A stretch of DNA of 64,000 nucleotides, taken from positions 11,910 through 75,909 of the forward strand of contig JBPBPU010000005.1 in the NCBI GenBank assembly GCA_050954465.1, in the 5' to 3' direction. Below are positions 54,948-63,152 of this stretch, in pieces; the first letter of the stretch is position 1; every line of letters begins with the position of its first letter. The notes under the pieces were generated by a model that worked only from the letters and a program-made list of their open reading frames with translations, did not search any database and was not told the origin of the DNA. The DNA comes from Janthinobacterium lividum (GTDB lineage Bacteria; Bacteroidota; Bacteroidia; Cytophagales; Hymenobacteraceae). A program made the translations under genes and the position numbers.

Positions 54948-56603
54948 CTACTCATCCAGATACTGGTGCACGAATTTGATGGCCATGCTGCCCTCACCTA
55001 CGGCGGAGGCTACGCGGGCCATGGCCCCGGAGCGGCCGTCGCCGGCAGCGAAAAGGCCGGGTACGCAAGTCTCTAGCAGATAAGGCTCCCGGTCTTTTTT
55101 CCAGGCGGTGGGGTAGCGCGGGTCGGCCACTAGGTCGCGGCCGGTGAGCAGGTAGCCTTTGGCATCGCAGAGGGCCAGGTGGCAGACCCACTCGGTGCTG
55201 GGCTTGGCTCCGATGAAGATGAACAGCGCCCGCGCCGGGTGCATTGTAGGCTCGCGCCCATCTTGCTGAATAACTACCGCTTCGAGCGAATTCTCGCCGC
55301 AGGCTTCGCGCACCTGGGTGTGGGGTAGGATGGTGATGTTGGGCGTGTTGGCGATTTGCTCAATCAGGTAGGCCGACATGCTGGCGGCCAGGTTTTCGCC
55401 TCGAATGATGATGAATACCTGCGAGGCGTAGGTAGAGAGGTACATAGCAGCCTGCCCGGCCGAGTTGCCGCCGCCCACAACGTACACCGGCTGCTGGCTG
55501 CAGCTGCGGGCCTCGGTGCGGGCGGCCCCGTAGTACACGCCCGCCCCGCTGAGGCGGTCCAGCCCCGGCGCATCCAGGGTGCGGTAGCTGACGCCGGTTG
55601 TGAGTACTACGGCCCGCGCTTTCACTTCGGTGTTGTCGCTCAGGGTGAGCACTTTGTAGCCGTCCTGCACGCAGAGGTTTACCACTTCCTGCGGGGCCAG
55701 AAACTCGGCCCCCAGGCGGGTGGCCTGCGCCCAGGCACGGTGCGCCAGCTCGGCCCCGCTCAGGCCCGTGGGGAAGCCCAGGTAGTTCTCGATGCGCGAC
55801 GACGAGCCGGCTTGCCCACCGGGCGTTTGGCGCTCGATAATCAGGGTTTTGAGCCCCTCCGAAGCGCCGTACACGGCGGCGGCCAGCCCGGCTGGCCCCG
55901 CCCCGATAACTACCACGTCGTACAGCTCCTGCTTGGCGGCCACGCTCAGGCCCAGGTGCTGGGCCAGGGTTTGGCGGTCGGGTTTGGGCAGGGCGTGGCC
56001 GTCGGCACAGATAACCACGGGCAGGTCGGTGGCGGCTAAGTTATTGGCGGCCACCAGGGTGGCAGCCTCGGCATCCTTCTCGTAATCCAGCCACTGGTAG
56101 CCTACCATGTAGCCACTCAGAAAGTCCTTTAGCTCGTGCGAGAGCGGCGACCACTGAAAGCCGATAAGCCGCAGGCCGTCGAACTTCGGCCGGTACACCT
56201 GCTGCCACTGTTGCAGCAAGTCGTGCAGCGTGGGGTAGAGCAACTGCTCGGGCGGGTCCCAAGGCTTGAGCAGATAATAGTCGAGCTGCGCCGAATTAAT
56301 AGCCTTGATGGCAGCTTCAGTGTCGGCGTAGGCGGTGAGTAACACGCGCTTAGCTTCGGGAAATAACGCCCGAGCCCGGGTCAGCACCTCAATGCCTTCG
56401 ACTTCGGGCATGCGCTGGTCGGCCAGCACCAGGGCCAGCGGCTCAGAGCGGGCTTGCAGTTCGGTGAGGGTGGCCAGGGCCTCGGGGCCGGAGCCGACGC
56501 GCAGAATCCGGTAGTCCTTTTGGAACTCGTGGCGCAGGTCGCGGCTGATGGCGGCCAGCACCTGCGGGTCGTCATCGACGGTGAGAATGACGGGTTTTTT
56601 CAT
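54948..56603 (-). CDS. fused response-regulator receiver / thioredoxin-reductase-like flavoprotein (no CxxC)
   Basis: Receiver features: VDDDP, LADQRMPEVEG (Asp62), LLKPW. FAD/NAD(P) Rossmann motifs: VVVIGAGPAGLAAAVY and VYVVGGGNSAGQAA. C-terminal motif GLFAAGD. The position of the TrxB CATC reads GAAR (55518-55529). Confidence 0.85.
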   Translation of the reverse strand: MKKPVILTVDDDPQVLAAISRDLRHEFQKDYRILRVGSGPEALATLTELQARSEPLALVLADQRMPEVEGIEVLTRARALFPEAKRVLLTAYADTEAAIKAINSAQLDYYLLKPWDPPEQLLYPTLHDLLQQWQQVYRPKFDGLRLIGFQWSPLSHELKDFLSGYMVGYQWLDYEKDAEAATLVAANNLAATDLPVVICADGHALPKPDRQTLAQHLGLSVAAKQELYDVVVIGAGPAGLAAAVYGASEGLKTLIIERQTPGGQAGSSSRIENYLGFPTGLSGAELAHRAWAQATRLGAEFLAPQEVVNLCVQDGYKVLTLSDNTEVKARAVVLTTGVSYRTLDAPGLDRLSGAGVYYGAARTEARSCSQQPVYVVGGGNSAGQAAMYLSTYASQVFIIIRGENLAASMSAYLIEQIANTPNITILPHTQVREACGENSLEAVVIQQDGREPTMHPARALFIFIGAKPSTEWVCHLALCDAKGYLLTGRDLVADPRYPTAWKKDREPYLLETCVPGLFAAGDGRSGAMARVASAVGEGSMAIKFVHQYLDE

Positions 56604-56768
56604 GGTGAGTAGAAACTGAAATCAACAAAAGCTAGTGGCCAAACAACTGGTAAGCCATAAAGGCCCAGCTACCATCGCCGCACACTTGGCTTGGCCGGTA
56701 GCATTACCGCTTCCCAACCGCAGGATTTTTAAAGTCAGGGGAAAATCCAGCACCAACCGGCTGAGTAA

Positions 56769-57183
56769 CTGCTGTTATGCAGCCGTCTCGCCCTCCGCAT
56801 TTACCTCACGAGACCCCTATGGAGCATAGCCCTCTCCTGTGGAGAGGGGCAACTAGCCTCTAGTTTTATTTTTTAGCTCTAATCCAGCCTTGTAAGTTAA
56901 ATACTAGGGCTAAAAATTACTCTACTATTTTTTTGCCGCCGTTTTCAAGCTGTTTCGGGCGGGTGTTGTAGGGTGCGGGGCTTGCCCCCGCCCGTCGTTG
57001 AACGACTGTTCAATGTTCGTTCAACGACGGGCGGGGGCAAGCCCCGCACCCTACAAACCTCGGAAAATTTTTAGTAGGGTAGAGTAGCTAAAAACTAGTT
57101 CCCCTCCCCATAGGAGAGCAGGCTACACCCCATAGGGGTCTCGTGAGGTAAATGCGGAGGGCGAGACGGCTGCATAACAGCAG
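56769..57183. repeat. 415-bp triple-nested composite palindrome
   Basis: The outer 54-bp arms, 56769-56822 and 57130-57183, are perfect. The middle layers are diverged (CCCTCTCC..GGAGAGGGGCAACTAG at about 56829-56856 vs 57095-57118, and AT-rich GCTAAAAATTACTCTAC vs GTAGAGTAGCTAAAAAC). The innermost 40-bp arms, 56966-57005 and 57017-57056 (GTAGGGTGCGGGG head), are perfect. Confidence 0.9.
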
Positions 57184-57697
57184 CGAGTAATGGATTTTGC
57201 TTGGTGGCGTGCGCAGCTTGGGCAGCCAGCCCGATTCTACCCTTACAAACCAAGTACAATCTAGAGGCACCGTTTCTAGGACTTATTATCTTTGTTTTAT
57301 TAAGTTTTTGTAAACTGATTTCTGAAAAGGAAATAAGCCAACCCACTCGGAGTTGAGACACACCAACGCTATATCCTGGCACCAAATGTTTAGTAGAATA
57401 CTCAACAAACTGGGGCTTATTCACTTGGCTTGTGCGGGTATCGATAGCGTGGTGACATGTTGGTAGTTACAAAATAATCAGGCAATTTCCAGAACGGCAA
57501 GGCGTCGATACTTTCACTTCTACAACAGGGCTCTAATTTTTGTGTATTTATTGTGCTTTACAAACAGTTACTACCAACGCATCACGGCTTTTCGGCTAGC
57601 TTCTTAATCCAAGTGCATAAGTCCTACAAACCAAAGAAACACCGTTTAGATGAACGAGAAATAGGCGAGCACTTTTAAATAGAAAAGTTTTGAAATT

Positions 57698-58459
57698 TTG
57701 CACCATACTTTTGTCTTATCCCCTCCCACCCTTGTTAAAATTACATTCTTTGTGCCAGATGCTTTACCCTTGCCAACTGCCCAACTAGCCTTGGTGGCTG
57801 CTACTATCGAACCAACCGGTTCGCCTTCTCTGCCTGGCTCTCCCTACGCTGCTGCGCCAACTTCCCGGCTACTGCCACAACGGAGGGCCGCGTTGCGCGC
57901 TATTCCCCAAACCAGTATTCTGTGGGAGCAGCTGGCTATTCAGCGGCGGGAAATGCAGGCCGCCGAAGCCGCCCTGAGTGAGCTACTAGCGCGTTCAGCC
58001 AAGCCTCGGGTTTCGCGGCTGCGCGAGTGGCTGGGCCGCTACGGGCCAGCGCAACTGCTATCGGTGCTGGCCACGCTGGGTGCAGCCCAGGCAGCTACCC
58101 ACGCCGGAGCCAATGGCGTAGCAGTAGCCCTTGCTGCCACTTGGACTGGCAATCTGGCTTATTTCGGCCTTATTCTGGGGCAGGATGTGAGGCGCACTCG
58201 CTACCAGCTGCACACCCAGGGCCGAGCCTACACCTGGCGCACCCTTGCCCGCAATGGGCGGGCGCTAGTGGTAGAGTTTGGCACAGCCGAAGCCCTGGAC
58301 AGCCTACTTATTCGCCCGGCGCTCCTGTACTGGCTGCCGCGCTGGCTGCACCATATGCCACTAGGCGTGATGGTAGGGCAGCTAGCTGCTGATGTTACGT
58401 TCTATATTCCAGCCATTATCAGCTACGAGCTAAGCAAAGAGCGGCTGCGAAGGTTTTGA
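57698..58459 (+). CDS. hypothetical membrane protein (start uncertain)
   Basis: 253-aa ORF with a TTG start in the track. The C-terminal ~150 aa have about 4 hydrophobic helices. No recognised family. It lies on the opposite strand between the kinase and regulator genes. Confidence 0.4.
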   Translation: MHHTFVLSPPTLVKITFFVPDALPLPTAQLALVAATIEPTGSPSLPGSPYAAAPTSRLLPQRRAALRAIPQTSILWEQLAIQRREMQAAEAALSELLARSAKPRVSRLREWLGRYGPAQLLSVLATLGAAQAATHAGANGVAVALAATWTGNLAYFGLILGQDVRRTRYQLHTQGRAYTWRTLARNGRALVVEFGTAEALDSLLIRPALLYWLPRWLHHMPLGVMVGQLAADVTFYIPAIISYELSKERLRRF

Positions 58460-58525
58460 GGGTTGCTGGTACCTGATGCCTAGACTACTCAATCGGCTGT
58501 CAGCACGACCCTCAAACCAGTAACC

Positions 58526-59917
58526 TTACACCGGCAGCCACACCAAAAACACCGTGCGCCCCGGCTCCGAAGTGGCGCTGAGCTGCCCGCCGTGCTCCTG
58601 CACAATGCGCCGGGCAATGTCGAGGCCCAGCCCGGTGCCCTCGCCGGCGGGCTTGGTGGTATAAAACGGCTCGAACAGGTGGGCCAGCACCTCGGCCTCA
58701 ATGCCGGTGCCGTTGTCAATGATGCGCACGCCCAGGCCGTTCGCCTGGGGAGCTACGCGCACCGTTAGCTCGCCGCCGGTGGTGGGCAGGGCATCCAAGG
58801 CGTTGTCGATGAGGTTGGTCCAGACCTGGTTGAGGCTACCTACTTTGCCCAGCACGGTGGGCAGGCCGGGGGCGTAGTCGCGCACGAGGCGCACGTTTTT
58901 TTCGCGTAGGGCGTGGGCAAAAATGTGCAGCGTGCTGTCGAGGCCCGTGGTTACGGCCAGCTTTTCGCGGCCGCCGTCGCGGTCCATGTGCGAGTAGGTT
59001 TTCACGTTGCCAACCAGCGCACTGATGCGCTGCCCGGCTTCGTGAATGTCGTGGGCCAGGCGGTGGGTAGCCAGGTGGCTTTCGAGCCAGGCCAGGGCCG
59101 GTGGGCGGGCCGCCGTGGGTAGCTGCGCCAGCAGCGGGGCCAGCGCGGGGGCCACCAAGCCAGCTTCGAGCAGGCCGGGAGCCAGGGTGTAGCCTTCGGG
59201 CACGGCCTGGGTTCCGAGCCAGTCGGCGAGGGCATCTTCCTGGTCGGCGCGGTCGAGGGCACTCAGGGTGGGCAGGTTTTCGGCGGGGGTGGACAGGGCC
59301 GTGAGGGTGGCTACGGCTTCGGGGCCGGGGCAGGCGGCCAGTAGGTTTTGTAGCAGGGCGCTACTGGCGGCCAGCTGCTGGGTGAGGGCGGCGGCGGCCC
59401 GCACAATGGCGGCAGCGGGGTTGTTCAGCTCGTGCGAGAGGCCGGCTGCCAGCTTGCCCAGCGCCCGCAGTTTGTCGTCGCGCTCCTGGCCGCGCACCTC
59501 GTCGCGGGCGCGGTCGCTCATAATGGCTACCAGCCGCTGCACCAGCTCGGCACTGGCTTGCTCAAGAGCCGGAAACTCGCGGCGCGACAGCATATACAGG
59601 GTAGTATCGCCCACGGCCACGCCATCGCCCCGGATTACCTGCAGGCGCGAGTATGGCAGCACCCCACTGATACTCCCTGCTTCGACGCGGAAAACCGGCT
59701 CCCGCTGCCCACTTACCACGCGGAAGTACTGTATTTCGCCGCTTACCACGGCCATCATGTTCTCGGCTGGGGTGCCGGCGGTAATAATGACTTCGCCAGG
59801 CGCGTAGCGACGTAGTTCGCCGTGGGTTAGCAGCCAGTCGACTACTGCCGCTGGCAGGTTCTGGAAAGCCGTGATGCCGCTGAGCAGGGCCGGGTCGGGA
59901 GGGAGTTGGTGGGGCAT
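58526..59917 (-). CDS. sensor histidine kinase with N-terminal cyclic-nucleotide-binding-like domain
   Basis: The N-terminal ~125 aa are cNMP-binding-like (...GEVIITAGTPAENMMAVVSGEI...FRVEAGSISGVLPYS...). H-box LSHELNNPAAAI. N-box NLIDNALDAL. G-boxes IDNGTGI and GTGLGLDIARRIV. No TM segment. Confidence 0.85.
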   Translation of the reverse strand: MPHQLPPDPALLSGITAFQNLPAAVVDWLLTHGELRRYAPGEVIITAGTPAENMMAVVSGEIQYFRVVSGQREPVFRVEAGSISGVLPYSRLQVIRGDGVAVGDTTLYMLSRREFPALEQASAELVQRLVAIMSDRARDEVRGQERDDKLRALGKLAAGLSHELNNPAAAIVRAAAALTQQLAASSALLQNLLAACPGPEAVATLTALSTPAENLPTLSALDRADQEDALADWLGTQAVPEGYTLAPGLLEAGLVAPALAPLLAQLPTAARPPALAWLESHLATHRLAHDIHEAGQRISALVGNVKTYSHMDRDGGREKLAVTTGLDSTLHIFAHALREKNVRLVRDYAPGLPTVLGKVGSLNQVWTNLIDNALDALPTTGGELTVRVAPQANGLGVRIIDNGTGIEAEVLAHLFEPFYTTKPAGEGTGLGLDIARRIVQEHGGQLSATSEPGRTVFLVWLPV

Positions 59918-59943: not shown

Positions 59944-61311
59944 ATGGGGTTAGCAGCGGGGCAGCGCAGGAACCAGCCGACCGCGCAACTGGCGCTAATT
60001 TCCCACAACCTAATTTGCGCCGTGACTGCTGCCCCCTCCCCTTTCCAGCTTACGCGTGAGCATGTGTTGCGGGCCCTGCGCCTAGTGGAGCGCGAGGGCC
60101 GCCGCCTGCCGCCCAGCACGGTGTACGAGCTGCTGTACCGGGGCCGCCGCTACCCGCCCCGCGCCGTGGCCGAGCTGGCCTACCGCCTCGCCCTGGCCGA
60201 CGCGCAAGCCCGCTGGCCCCACCCGGCCGGCCAGCCCACCAATGCCCTGCTCGAAGCCCTCGATTTCACCATTGTGGCCAAGCGCCCCATGCTCACGGCA
60301 GGCCAGCCCCACGACCAGGAGCAGGCCGCCGAACAAGCCGCCGAAAACCTCTACACCGGCTCCCCGCGCCCTGCCGCGCCGGCAGTTTCGGCGGTGGCAG
60401 AAGCGGCGGGCTCCTACGCCAGCCCGGCCCCGGCCTACGCACTGGCCGATGCCCTACGGGAAGTTTTTGTGTCGGAACCCGCCCTGAGTGCGGCCCTGGC
60501 GGGTTTGCGCCGCCGCAAGGCGCTGCTGCTGCAAGGCCCGCCGGGCACGGGCAAAACGTTTCTGGCCCGCCGCCTGGCGTGGCTGCTGCAAGGCAGCCAG
60601 GACGAGCGCCGCACCGAGCTGGTGCAGTTTCATCCCAGCTACGGCTACGAGGACTTTCTGCTCGGCTTCCGCCCCGGCCCCGACGGGCAGTTTCAACTGG
60701 TGCCAGGGGTGCTGCCGCTGCTGTGCCAGCGCGCCGCCCAGGACCCCGACCACCCGTATTTTCTGCTGATTGAGGAGCTGAACCGGGGCAACGTGGCCCG
60801 TATTTTTGGCGAGCTGCTGCTGTTGCTGGAGCCCGATAAGCGCGGCCCTGCCCACGCCATGCGCCTGCCCTACGCGCCGCCCGAGGCCCCGCGCTTCTTC
60901 GTGCCCGCCAACCTCTACGTTATTGGCACCCTCAACCTGGCCGACCGCTCCCTGGCCCCGCTCGACTACGCGCTACGCCGCCGGTTTGCGTTTGTGGGCC
61001 TGGGGCCGCAGTTTGGCGAGCCCTTGCAGCAGCAGCTACGCACAGCGGGTGTGCCCACCCCCCTGCTGGCCGAGCTGGCAAAGCGGATGGTGGCGCTCAA
61101 CCACGTTATTGCCGCTGACCCAGAGCTGGGGCCGGATTTTGAGGTGGGCCACAGCTACTTCTGCGCGCCGCCGCTGGTGCCTACCGAAGCTGGCGAGTGG
61201 CTGCGCCTGATTTTTGAGCAGGAAATCGGCCCGCTGCTCGCCGACTATTGGCGCGAGCAGCCGGAACGGGCCGCCGCACAGCTGCAACGGCTGGTAGCGG
61301 GCGTAGGGTAA
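59944..61311 (+). CDS. mcrB: McrB-family AAA+ GTPase subunit of a type IV restriction system
   Basis: Motifs seen: LLQGPPGTGKTFLARRLA (Walker A), FHPSYGYEDFL, LLIEELNRGNVARIFGELLLLLE, VIGTLNLADRSLAPLDYALRRRFAF. The N-terminal ~100 aa form a separate small domain followed by an Ala/Pro-rich linker. The true start may be GTG 60022. The last codons and the stop lie in the next repeat. Confidence 0.85.
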   Translation: MGLAAGQRRNQPTAQLALISHNLICAVTAAPSPFQLTREHVLRALRLVEREGRRLPPSTVYELLYRGRRYPPRAVAELAYRLALADAQARWPHPAGQPTNALLEALDFTIVAKRPMLTAGQPHDQEQAAEQAAENLYTGSPRPAAPAVSAVAEAAGSYASPAPAYALADALREVFVSEPALSAALAGLRRRKALLLQGPPGTGKTFLARRLAWLLQGSQDERRTELVQFHPSYGYEDFLLGFRPGPDGQFQLVPGVLPLLCQRAAQDPDHPYFLLIEELNRGNVARIFGELLLLLEPDKRGPAHAMRLPYAPPEAPRFFVPANLYVIGTLNLADRSLAPLDYALRRRFAFVGLGPQFGEPLQQQLRTAGVPTPLLAELAKRMVALNHVIAADPELGPDFEVGHSYFCAPPLVPTEAGEWLRLIFEQEIGPLLADYWREQPERAAAQLQRLVAGVG

Positions 61312-61405
61312 GCTGCAGCTTGCCAATTTTAGGCGTTAGGGGTTTAGGCCCGACATTCACCAACAACCTCATTACTTTAAACTGGCAAGCTGAAGCTTAC
61401 CCTAC
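61303..61405. repeat. palindromic REP-like element (GTAGGGTAAGCT head), copy 2
   Basis: 23-bp arms at 61303-61325 and 61383-61405 with 1 mismatch and a 57-nt spacer. The left arm contains the mcrB stop TAA (61309-61311). The right arm ends 5 nt before the next ATG. Confidence 0.9.
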
Positions 61406-61410
61406 ATCTT

Positions 61411-62094
61411 ATGCGTAACGTCCGGCTTTTAGTCATTTGCCTGCTTAGTGCCAGCTTCCGCCTGGTGTTTGCGCAAGGCAGCACCTCCGATTCTACTCTG
61501 GCCTGGAAGCAGGTGGTGCTTGGTACTGGGGCCAGCATTGCCATGCCCGCTACGGCGGCCCTTTCCTCAAGCGCTACCAAAGAGATTCCGGCCTATGTGG
61601 CCCGCAGCCACGAAGCCATTTACATGGTAGCCGTCACCTGCGCCGACTCGGCCGCCACCGACGGCGAGCAGCTGAGCGGCAGCGCGCTGGATACGGTGTA
61701 CGCGGCGGCGTTCAAGAGCCTCCTGCGCACGGGCAGCCAGGACCGCATCGTGAGCCAGACAGCCTTTACTCTGGCCGGGCAACGCGGCGTGGAGGCGCAA
61801 CTCGACCTGCCCAATGCGCCCAACCTGGCCCGCGCCAAGTTTGCGCGGGTATTTTATTTCAACGGCTTTATTTACATCCTCACCTGGCGCGAAACCTCCA
61901 GCCACGCGCCCACCGATGAGCCCGACAACCGCCAACACTTTTTTACGTCGCTGCGCATGAAGCCCAGTGCCCCGCATCCGGCCGTTTCGGGGCCTCGCCA
62001 GCTCGGGCGCTTGCTGGGGCAACTACTGGTGTTGGCTGCCGTGGTGGTGGGGATTGTTGTTTTTGTTAGGCGGCAGTCGCGGCCCGCCCGGTAG
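61411..62094 (+). CDS. secreted, C-terminally membrane-anchored protein of unknown function inserted between mcrB and mcrC
   Basis: Signal peptide MRNVRLLVICLLSASFRLVFAQG. The body of about 150 aa looks beta-rich. C-terminal TM helix LLGQLLVLAAVVVGIVVFV followed by RRQSR. Confidence 0.55.
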   Translation: MRNVRLLVICLLSASFRLVFAQGSTSDSTLAWKQVVLGTGASIAMPATAALSSSATKEIPAYVARSHEAIYMVAVTCADSAATDGEQLSGSALDTVYAAAFKSLLRTGSQDRIVSQTAFTLAGQRGVEAQLDLPNAPNLARAKFARVFYFNGFIYILTWRETSSHAPTDEPDNRQHFFTSLRMKPSAPHPAVSGPRQLGRLLGQLLVLAAVVVGIVVFVRRQSRPAR

Positions 62095-62108
62095 CCCGCC
62101 CGCCGCTC

Positions 62109-63152
62109 ATGATACCCCTCGCCACGCTCTACTACCTGCTGTGCTACGCCTGGCAGCGCCTGCCCGAGCCGGCCGTACTGCAAGCCACCGAGGGCGCGCC
62201 GTTTCACCGGCCCCTGGAGCTGCTTACCCAGATGCTGCTGCACGCCACGCGCCAGTTGTTGCGTGCAGGGCTGCCCAGGGGGTTTGTCAGCCACGAGGCC
62301 GAAATCGGCGAATTGCGCGGGCGCGTGGTGCTGGCGCCTACCATCGGGCGGGGGCTGCTGCCGCAGGGCCGGGCCGTGTGCCAGTTCGACGAGCTAAGCC
62401 CCAACCTGCCCCTGACGCGGCTGCTGGCTGGCACCCTGGCGGCACTGGTAGCCCACCCAGCATTGCCCCTGGCTTTGCGGCGAACGGTGGGGCAGCTGCG
62501 CCGCCGCCTGCCGGCCGGGGTGCAGCCTACGGCCCCGGCGGCCGGGGTATTTGCCAGCCTGCGCCGCCAGCGGTGGGCGGCGGGCGAGGCGTTTTTATTG
62601 CACATCTGCGAGCTGATTTTCCAAACGGCCCTGCCCGCTCCTACCGCCGAGGGCCGGGGCCGCTTCCCCGATTTCCGGCGCGACGAAGGGCTGATGGCGC
62701 GCTTATTTGAACAGGCCGTGCGCAATTTCTACCGCCGCGAGCAGCGCCAGTACCGGGTATTTGCCGAAACCATTGCCTGGCAGGCCGAAGCCGCGGAACC
62801 CGCCAGCCTGGCCCTGCTGCCCACCATGCTCACCGATACCACGCTGGAAAGCCCGACCCGCAAAATCATCCTCGACACCAAATACTACGCGGCGGCTCTG
62901 CGCTCGCGCTACGACCAGCAACGGCTTATTTCGCCGCACCTCTACCAGCTCTATGCCTACCTGCAAAACCTGCGCCCGGCCCCCGGCCAGGCGCTCGAAG
63001 GCATCTTGCTATACCCGGCAGCCACAAAGGCTCTTGATGTGCGCTACACCCTGGGCGGCCACCCCGTGCGGGTTGTCACCCTCGACCTGCACCAGCCCTG
63101 GCCAGGCATTGCGGCTGCGCTGCTGGATTTGGTGGGTGATGGGAGCAACTGA
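62109..63152 (+). CDS. mcrC: McrC-family nuclease subunit of a type IV restriction system
   Basis: N-terminal LYYLLCYAW... C-terminal PD-(D/E)xK-like block LTDTTLESPTRKIILDTKYY....LYQLYAYL, typical of McrC. Confidence 0.8.
   Translation: MIPLATLYYLLCYAWQRLPEPAVLQATEGAPFHRPLELLTQMLLHATRQLLRAGLPRGFVSHEAEIGELRGRVVLAPTIGRGLLPQGRAVCQFDELSPNLPLTRLLAGTLAALVAHPALPLALRRTVGQLRRRLPAGVQPTAPAAGVFASLRRQRWAAGEAFLLHICELIFQTALPAPTAEGRGRFPDFRRDEGLMARLFEQAVRNFYRREQRQYRVFAETIAWQAEAAEPASLALLPTMLTDTTLESPTRKIILDTKYYAAALRSRYDQQRLISPHLYQLYAYLQNLRPAPGQALEGILLYPAATKALDVRYTLGGHPVRVVTLDLHQPWPGIAAALLDLVGDGSN

Follow-up and report, generated by a model that had tools for sequence, protein, structure and literature searches.

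We describe here a response regulator gene of Hymenobacter that lies within a 64,000-nucleotide stretch of DNA (the window) from contig JBPBPU010000005.1 of a 7.29-Mb assembly. The gene occupies positions 54948-56603 on the minus strand, runs from an ATG start codon to a TAG stop codon according to the open reading frame (ORF) list and its translation, and encodes a protein of 551 amino acids that we call the regulator. This protein is an intact two-component response regulator in which an enzyme-like output takes the place of a DNA-binding domain. The output is composed of a glutaredoxin-like (Grx-like) domain followed by a module that resembles thioredoxin reductase (TrxR), each of which is devoid of its cysteine pair. 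We consider it fairly probable (roughly 0.6) that the regulator is a phosphorylation-gated oxidoreductase that uses flavin adenine dinucleotide (FAD) and reduced nicotinamide adenine dinucleotide or its phosphate (NAD(P)H), and that electrons pass from the flavin straight to an acceptor with no enzyme dithiol in between. An earlier reading of the window's letters (the original prediction) had given the coordinates of the fusion, its receiver and its CxxC-less TrxR-like module as we find them, and had not stated the strand.

There are 80 full-length orthologues in our collection, with 49-82% identity over residues 1-551, and the resulting alignment has 81 rows. These orthologues come from at least nine phyla, namely Bacteroidota, Cyanobacteria, Chloroflexota, Acidobacteriota, Gemmatimonadota, Actinomycetota, Verrucomicrobiota, Planctomycetota and Proteobacteria. 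Pfam recognizes a receiver (Response_reg, PF00072) at residues 6-119 of the regulator with 56.1 bits against a cut-off of 30.2, and Pyr_redox_2 at residues 228-538 with 118 bits. In an AlphaFold model for which 150 family representatives were used (predicted local distance difference test score, pLDDT, of 96; predicted template modelling score, pTM, of 0.87), a long helix at residues 118-136 precedes a beta-alpha-beta-alpha-beta-beta-alpha unit at residues 144-218. The features of the gene are as follows.

54948-56603, minus strand: the whole gene, a fusion of receiver, Grx-like and TrxR-like domains (ORF list and translation; orthologues of 50-90% identity span residues 1-551).
56247-56594, minus strand: the receiver, residues 4-119 (Pfam PF00072, conserved residues and a (beta-alpha)5 fold in the model).
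56418-56420, minus strand: the codon for Asp62, the predicted phospho-acceptor (Asp in all 81 rows; coordinate confirmed by translation).
55950-56174, minus strand: the cysteine-less glutaredoxin-fold domain, residues 144-218 (mycoredoxin-1 profile match, Pfam Glutaredoxin in relatives, domain model).
56139-56153, minus strand: the pseudo-active site W151-S-P-L-S155 (aligns with W-C-G-Y-C of mycoredoxin).
54951-55928, minus strand: the TrxR-like two-Rossmann FAD/NAD(P)H module, residues 226-551 (Pfam, solved TrxRs, model superposition).
55887-55904, minus strand: GAGPAG, the FAD dinucleotide-binding motif, residues 234-239 (G234, G236, P237 and G239 nearly invariant; coordinates confirmed by translation).
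55518-55529, minus strand: G359-A-A-R362, at the place of the TrxR CxxC (aligned with 7aaw, with 4gcm and with the TrxB of this genome).
55455-55475, minus strand: the glycine motif GGGNSAG for NAD(P)H binding, residues 377-383 (G377, N380, S381 and A382 nearly invariant; coordinates confirmed by translation).
55401-55403, minus strand: R401, sole survivor of the HRRxxxR 2'-phosphate motif of TrxR (alignment, 81 of 81 rows).

The receiver appears, from its residues, to be equipped with everything required for phosphorylation. D10 and D11 are found in 80 rows, whereas D62, T90 and K113 (the lysine of LLKPW) are found in all 81, and the translation confirms the coordinates of these residues. The receiver had earlier been called intact on the basis of the DD pair, Asp62 and the lysine of LLKPW; those residues are indeed present and conserved in the family, and T90 can be added to them. 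The acidic pair, the aspartate, the threonine and the lysine are all in place.

What had been described as a linker of some 110 amino acids between receiver and flavoprotein is in fact the helix at 118-136 followed by a folded domain at residues 144-218 that has the glutaredoxin fold and no redox cysteines. A profile of this segment made from 110 family members matches mycoredoxin-1 of Mycobacterium tuberculosis (2lqo) with an E-value of 4e-10, and in that alignment W-S-P-x-S stands opposite W-C-G-Y-C. The Pfam Glutaredoxin family (PF00462) is matched by the segments of 34 of the 110 members, although the regulator's own segment has no Pfam match. When modelled alone (pLDDT 91), the segment superimposes in Foldseek on the NrdH-like protein BC3987 and on glutaredoxin cGrx1 with template modelling (TM) scores of 0.84-0.88 and root-mean-square deviations (rmsd) of 1.4-1.6 Å. 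S152 is present in 75 of the 81 rows and P195 of the cis-Pro loop in 80. Thus, the domain has the fold of a glutaredoxin and carries WSPLS where a CxxC or CxxS active site would stand.

The best solved relatives of the remaining module are bacterial low-molecular-mass TrxRs, with an E-value of 1e-43. In alignments with the solved enzymes 7aaw and 4gcm, the column of the TrxR redox disulfide (C-A-V-C) falls on G359-A-A-R362, which bears out the earlier report of GAAR at 55518-55529 in place of the TrxB CxxC. G359 is invariant, positions 360 and 361 are Ala or Gly in 78 and 75 of the 81 rows, and there is no row with a cysteine anywhere from 359 to 362. The FAD motif GAGPAG, the sequence GGQAG.SS.IENYLGFP and the NAD(P)H motif GGGNSAGQAA are conserved, and the family-specific MS.YL and the C-terminal helix GD(V)R...RVA.AVGEG are strongly so. 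HRRDTLRA of TrxR aligns with IRGENLAA of the regulator, and the orthologues have G, K, R or A at position 402. Together the conserved motifs suggest a working site for FAD and NAD(P)H, with a pocket lined by small residues where the disulfide used to be. The model superimposes well on TrxR 5mh4 (TM 0.93, rmsd 2.2 Å), which is in the flavin-reducing (FR) state, the one named for the reduction of flavin by NADPH. The best superpositions are with TrxRs in this state, whereas those on structures in the flavin-oxidizing (FO) state are poor (TM about 0.63).

The regulator scores 214 bits with the NCBIfam TrxR equivalog TIGR01292, below its cut-off of 343.45. The genome has a canonical TrxB of its own, encoded on another contig (C38), with CAVC at the site and 29% identity to the regulator. 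A bacillithiol-disulfide reductase of the YpdA type was also considered and rejected, as TIGR04018 gives 65.6 bits against a cut-off of 339.9.

The loss of the disulfide is not made good elsewhere. There is no CxxC anywhere in the regulator, whose seven cysteines are at positions 199, 311, 368, 435, 474, 479 and 513. Only two alignment columns hold a cysteine in more than one fifth of the rows: 329 (41 of 81; Ala in the regulator) and 368 (59 of 81). No cysteine column is invariant, 12 of the 81 rows have no cysteine at either of these two positions, five orthologues have a single cysteine and one has none. Stray CxxC strings do occur in nine of the 81 rows, at a different position each time. 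C474 and C479 of the regulator form a CX4C that is kept, with both residues, in 98 of 120 close Hymenobacter relatives. Outside the genus, G, A, P or E stands at position 474 and R at 479, and the CX4C is absent from other phyla. Because no cysteine column is invariant and one orthologue is free of cysteine, the alignment indicates that the function of the family cannot depend on a protein dithiol. Classical reduction of thioredoxin through an enzyme dithiol is thereby excluded, as the original prediction had held, and the conserved redox pair elsewhere in the chain that could have overturned this view does not exist in the 81-row alignment.

The partner of the regulator is a kinase gene on the same strand, from which it is separated by a long spacer.

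58526-59917, minus strand: the cognate soluble histidine kinase, 463 amino acids (Pfam, kinase boxes, adjacency, co-distribution).
56604-58525, no strand: the 1.9-kb spacer between kinase and regulator (gap comparison among 80 loci).

Pfam finds a domain resembling those that bind cyclic nucleoside monophosphates (cNMPs), followed by HisKA and HATPase_c. All 75 homologues have H162, and conservation extends to the N, G1, F and G2 boxes. A full-length kinase homologue adjoins the regulator on the same strand in 74 of the 80 loci and in none on the opposite one, and wherever the match has an E-value below 1e-20 (72 loci) it is on the regulator's strand. The majority of Bacteroidota have it upstream of the regulator, the majority of the other phyla downstream. 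Six loci have no kinase, and two of these end at a contig edge. Among 121 genomes of the taxonomic family, which are kin and hence not independent, the regulator is found in 59 and the kinase in 58. A single genome (G003) has the regulator and no kinase hit, and none has the kinase alone. Within the genus, the three genomes in which one gene is absent are without the other as well, and copy numbers match, in that genomes with two regulators carry two kinases. Because the adjacency holds across phyla, the pairing is secure: the regulator has its cognate partner in the kinase at 58526-59917. The original prediction had named this same kinase, and the co-occurrence across genomes that it proposed to look for is strongly evident.

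The signal that reaches the kinase is probably not a canonical cyclic nucleotide, to judge from the residues of the pocket. The cNMP-like domain (PF00027) does pass Pfam with 41.7 bits against a cut-off of 27.5. However, compared with CRP of Thermus thermophilus, the kinase has G-V for G-E and R-G-D for R-S-A, and among the 75 homologues the Glu of the phosphate-binding cassette is found in only 24 and the aligned Arg in only four. It is because this conserved phosphate-binding Arg is missing from the pocket that a cyclic-nucleotide input, such as the original prediction had hinted at, is doubtful. Relatives of the effector that carry a cNMP domain of their own likewise have no conserved cassette Arg. 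The idea that these relatives and the kinase share one sensor, split off by the phosphorelay, finds no support at sequence level, as the N-terminal domain of the kinase has no BLAST similarity to the cNMP domain of the genome's own paralogue (see below). Three tandem histidine kinase genes on another contig (C21, 43615-47823; L089-L091) have catalytic halves that are 40-46% identical to residues 260-462 of the kinase.

The regulator is an ordinary member of a widespread and catalogued family. Its close homologues, with 75-90% identity, are from Hymenobacter, where 34 of 37 genomes have the gene and it is thus near-universal, and identity across phyla is 50-59%. The family motifs GGQAG.SS.IENYLGFP, G.G.YYGA..EA, NSAGQAA and MS.YL are all found in it, in a full-length collinear arrangement. 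A wider sample was made of the 150 best representatives of clusters at 50% identity, and none of these has a CxxC at the TrxR site. About 98 carry a receiver, 32 have a cNMP-binding domain instead, one has both, and some add a SnoaL-like domain. The one with both (P0126) carries its cNMP-binding domain at the C-terminus, after the receiver and the core, and in two others (P0147 and P0164) a SnoaL-like domain is N-terminal to the receiver. The effector module is joined to different sensor domains in a modular fashion. When a tree is drawn for the flavoprotein core, the type of sensor is seen to have switched at least several times; this is the only result taken from the tree, which has the genome's own TrxB as a single long-branched outgroup and is unsafely rooted. 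Two censuses of response regulators list the architecture, one as a 'Mycobacterium-like combination' of receiver and thioredoxin reductase (PMC5847659) and the other as a 'TrxB' class (PMC9953108). Database names given to close homologues are 'FAD-dependent oxidoreductase', 'response regulator' and 'thioredoxin reductase (NADPH)'.

There is a cNMP-type paralogue in the genome itself, encoded on contig C46 (L002:1021-2772, plus strand). This protein of 583 amino acids is composed of a cNMP-binding domain, a cysteine-less Grx-like domain and a CxxC-less TrxR-like module with YGAARTEA at the site, and its identity to the regulator over residues 144-549 is 46%. Homologues of the same type in Cupriavidus also have no CxxC and carry W-A-S-P at the site, and one of these (L085) is 44% identical to the regulator core. 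A probable relative has been assayed. This protein, ATII-TrxR, is a cNMP-domain fusion of 552 amino acids from a Red Sea brine pool and is reported to be 87% identical to a Cupriavidus metallidurans protein (PMC6544261). [quoted passage not shown] The 'redox centres' drawn by its authors are Cys206-Cys223 and Cys376-Cys467, and the portions of the report that are available make no mention of a CxxC (PMC6544261). The cysteines at 233, 250 and 403 of the Cupriavidus homologue have the spacing of those at 206, 223 and 376 of ATII-TrxR, and ATII-TrxR very probably belongs to the cNMP-type branch of the cysteine-less family. If so, these reported properties would lend indirect support to FAD binding and to the use of both NADPH and NADH in the family.

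These observations lead us to the following proposal. The soluble kinase would autophosphorylate on His162 and pass the phosphoryl group to Asp62 of the receiver, which a long helix joins to a compact effector made of the cysteine-less glutaredoxin-fold domain and the CxxC-less flavoprotein. By homology to TrxRs, and from the ATII-TrxR report, we infer that the effector binds FAD and NAD(P)H, and it would most likely accept hydride from NADPH or NADH. Reduced flavin might then hand its electrons directly to an acceptor, perhaps a small-molecule disulfide or some other oxidant, which could lodge where the small residues G359-A-A leave room, or else at the nicotinamide site. Thioredoxin would not be reduced in the classical manner. 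The activity would be turned on or off when the receiver is phosphorylated, probably by changing the arrangement of domains or of a dimer. Support for this proposal comes from the fact that the receiver and kinase residues and the cofactor motifs are kept, and that a canonical TrxB is encoded separately in the genome. The adjacency and co-distribution of kinase and regulator, the superposition of the model on FR-state TrxR, the CxxC-less core of the cNMP-type branch and the reported biochemistry of ATII-TrxR speak for it as well. Architecture, loss of the redox cysteines, retention of the cofactor motifs and the kinase pairing are shown by the analysis, whereas flavin-to-acceptor transfer and phosphorylation gating are proposed.

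Several observations weigh against this proposal. No neighbouring gene indicates what the acceptor might be, and the only genes other than the kinase that recur beside the regulator are those for a small zf-UBP protein (18 of 80 loci) and egtB/egtD (6 of 80). The NADPH 2'-phosphate motif keeps just one of its three arginines, the invariant R401. The 1.9-kb separation of kinase and regulator leaves their co-transcription not assured. ATII-TrxR is reported to support thioredoxin-dependent reduction of insulin with a kcat of 28 per s (PMC6544261), which, if real, would speak against the view that the protein is no thioredoxin reductase, and its placement in the family itself depends on cysteine spacing and on the 87% identity that the report gives to the Cupriavidus protein. 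Finally, our literature search found no study of, and no biochemical data for, any receiver-fused member. The original prediction had called the coupling of a phosphorelay to redox enzymology not functionally characterised, which agrees with this search for receiver-fused proteins, but the architecture itself stands in the two censuses and the probable relative on the cNMP branch has been assayed (PMC6544261).

The main rival, which we regard as unlikely, is that the effector is a pseudoenzyme that serves as a redox sensor. Such a protein would report the NAD(P)H/NAD(P)+ ratio or the redox state of its flavin without turning over a substrate, and might act by contacting other proteins (the zf-UBP protein is one candidate), by feeding back on the kinase, or by affecting the phosphorylation of the receiver. 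This would fit the joint loss of two redox centres, the attachment of the module to varied sensor domains, the lack of a conserved substrate-related gene nearby and the recurrence of the zf-UBP gene, whose family takes its name from zinc fingers that occur in ubiquitin hydrolases and in other proteins. However, cross-phylum identity of 50-59% over the cofactor motifs, and the strict retention of small residues at the former CxxC site, are better suited to an active site than to a scaffold. ATII-TrxR, moreover, is reported to turn over NAD(P)H with DTNB.

The zf-UBP protein is about 100 amino acids long where it is encoded beside the pair, as in Hymenobacter wooponensis and other loci (for example L005:7070-7339). 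In this genome a counterpart of 107 amino acids and 74% identity is encoded apart from the pair on contig C12 (L087:1492-1815, minus strand), and its neighbours there are genes for a GNAT acetyltransferase and for a PKD/ricin protein sorted by type IX secretion (T9SS). The zf-UBP gene of H. wooponensis occupies the place just upstream of the kinase. In the window, that place is taken by a McrB-like AAA_5 gene and an McrC gene (59944-63152) that lie divergently beside the kinase, with an ORF of 227 amino acids between them.

A more specific version of the oxidoreductase proposal is that a signal gates the module, which would reduce or oxidize a low-molecular-mass thiol or thione such as ergothioneine, though we think this identity rather improbable. 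Serine-type glutathione transferases hold a small thiol, and W-S152 of the glutaredoxin-fold domain might, at long odds, do the same while the flavin reduces a disulfide with no help from a protein cysteine. In this improbable scheme the kinase would couple the module to some ligand other than a cNMP. The observations that hint at ergothioneine are hints only, and four can be named. The egtB/egtD genes are beside the pair in six loci from three phyla (L010:6175-8371, L012, L017, L058, L061 and L071), with egtB recognized by TIGR03440 at 519 bits. In one family relative (G014) the regulator adjoins a short egtB homologue. The present genome has an EgtB of its own, encoded elsewhere than the regulator locus. 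The fourth is the reported direct reduction of DTNB by ATII-TrxR. The presence of EgtB in all 121 family genomes, with or without the regulator, makes its co-occurrence uninformative.

It is very doubtful that the regulator is a true reductase of thioredoxin or of a glutaredoxin-like protein that works by an unconventional route, as has been claimed for ATII-TrxR. The flavin could reduce the protein disulfide directly, or, no less implausibly, lineage-specific cysteines such as C368 or the C474/C479 pair could take the place of the CxxC. The reported Km of ATII-TrxR for its cognate thioredoxin, 1.03 µM in the insulin assay (PMC6544261), is in keeping with this idea, as are the frequency of C368 and the retention of the CX4C among close relatives in the genus. 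Weighed against these are the absence of an invariant cysteine column, the 12 rows with neither semi-conserved cysteine, the cysteine-free orthologue, the replacement of C474 and C479 outside the genus, the sub-threshold TIGR01292 score and the canonical TrxB already present in the genome. In addition, the ATII-TrxR that was assayed had been made in Escherichia coli and the available portions of the report describe no cysteine mutants. Its thioredoxin claim is in need of re-testing.

A ferredoxin/flavodoxin-NAD(P)+ reductase of the TRLF/YumC type under phosphorelay control is scarcely probable: TRLF enzymes are indeed TrxR-fold flavoproteins with no CxxC, and the solved structures 3ab1, 3lzw and 6gas are matched at E-values of 1e-10 to 1e-14, but the similarity to TrxRs is far stronger (1e-43), the model, too, is matched best by TrxRs, the 80 loci have no recurrent gene for a ferredoxin or flavodoxin near the pair and TRLF enzymes have no fused Grx-like domain, and this identity was rejected on the similarity scores.

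The spacer between kinase and regulator is 1922 bp long and is the widest among those of the 80 sampled loci in which the kinase is upstream. The gaps in such relatives are mostly 6-436 bp, with a maximum of 1240, and another relative (G033) has one of 1.8 kb. Nested palindromic repeats lie at about 56770-57250 in the spacer, which also has an AT-rich stretch and, on the opposite strand, an ORF of 253 amino acids (57698-58459) with no Pfam or NCBIfam match. The sigma-70 consensus is not expected to apply to Bacteroidota, and a scan of the spacer for it was not used.

The loss of the dithiol has consequences for annotation. Because the redox CxxC is missing, the database label 'thioredoxin reductase (NADPH)' cannot be right by the classical mechanism and should not be propagated. 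The family is large as well as near-universal in Hymenobacter, and it couples a phosphorelay directly to a flavoprotein, such that solving one member would annotate thousands of genes and would show how a disulfide reductase scaffold is reused once its thiols are lost. The present copy adds little to this picture, being typical of the family and set in a locus that is somewhat rearranged.

Several known systems resemble the regulator in part. It has in common with TrxB (TIGR01292; 7aaw, 4gcm, 5mh4) the two-Rossmann fold, GxGxxG, GGGxxA and the C-terminal GD...G.G helix, at about 29-31% identity. It differs in having GAAR for CxxC, an HRRxxxR motif cut to one Arg, a score below the cut-off, and added receiver and Grx-like domains. 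With mycoredoxin-1, NrdH and glutaredoxin (2lqo, 3zij, 7c10) it shares a fold, a cis-Pro loop and the Trp that precedes the active-site position, but they have WCGYC where the regulator has WSPLS and hence no thiol, and its domain, unlike theirs, is fused between a receiver and a flavoprotein. AhpF and thioredoxin-glutathione reductase likewise have a Trx-fold domain N-terminal to a pyridine-nucleotide disulfide oxidoreductase, and AhpF is matched at an E-value of 2e-26. However, both retain every redox cysteine whereas the regulator retains none, and the global superposition of AhpF on the model is poor (TM about 0.4). The cNMP-type proteins that NCBI names 'thioredoxin-disulfide reductase', including ATII-TrxR and the paralogue on C46, are closer, with a common core of cysteine-less Grx-like domain and CxxC-less TrxR-like module, 44-46% identity and the family motifs. 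Members of that branch are one-component proteins with a fused cNMP-binding-like sensor, whereas the regulator has a receiver that is fed by a kinase. Closest of all are the 'TrxB-type' response regulators of the censuses, with which it shares the three-domain architecture (50-90% identity over the full length) and the partner kinase. Nothing in the protein sets it apart from these; the locus differs from theirs in that a 1.9-kb insert splits kinase from regulator and the zf-UBP gene is on another contig.

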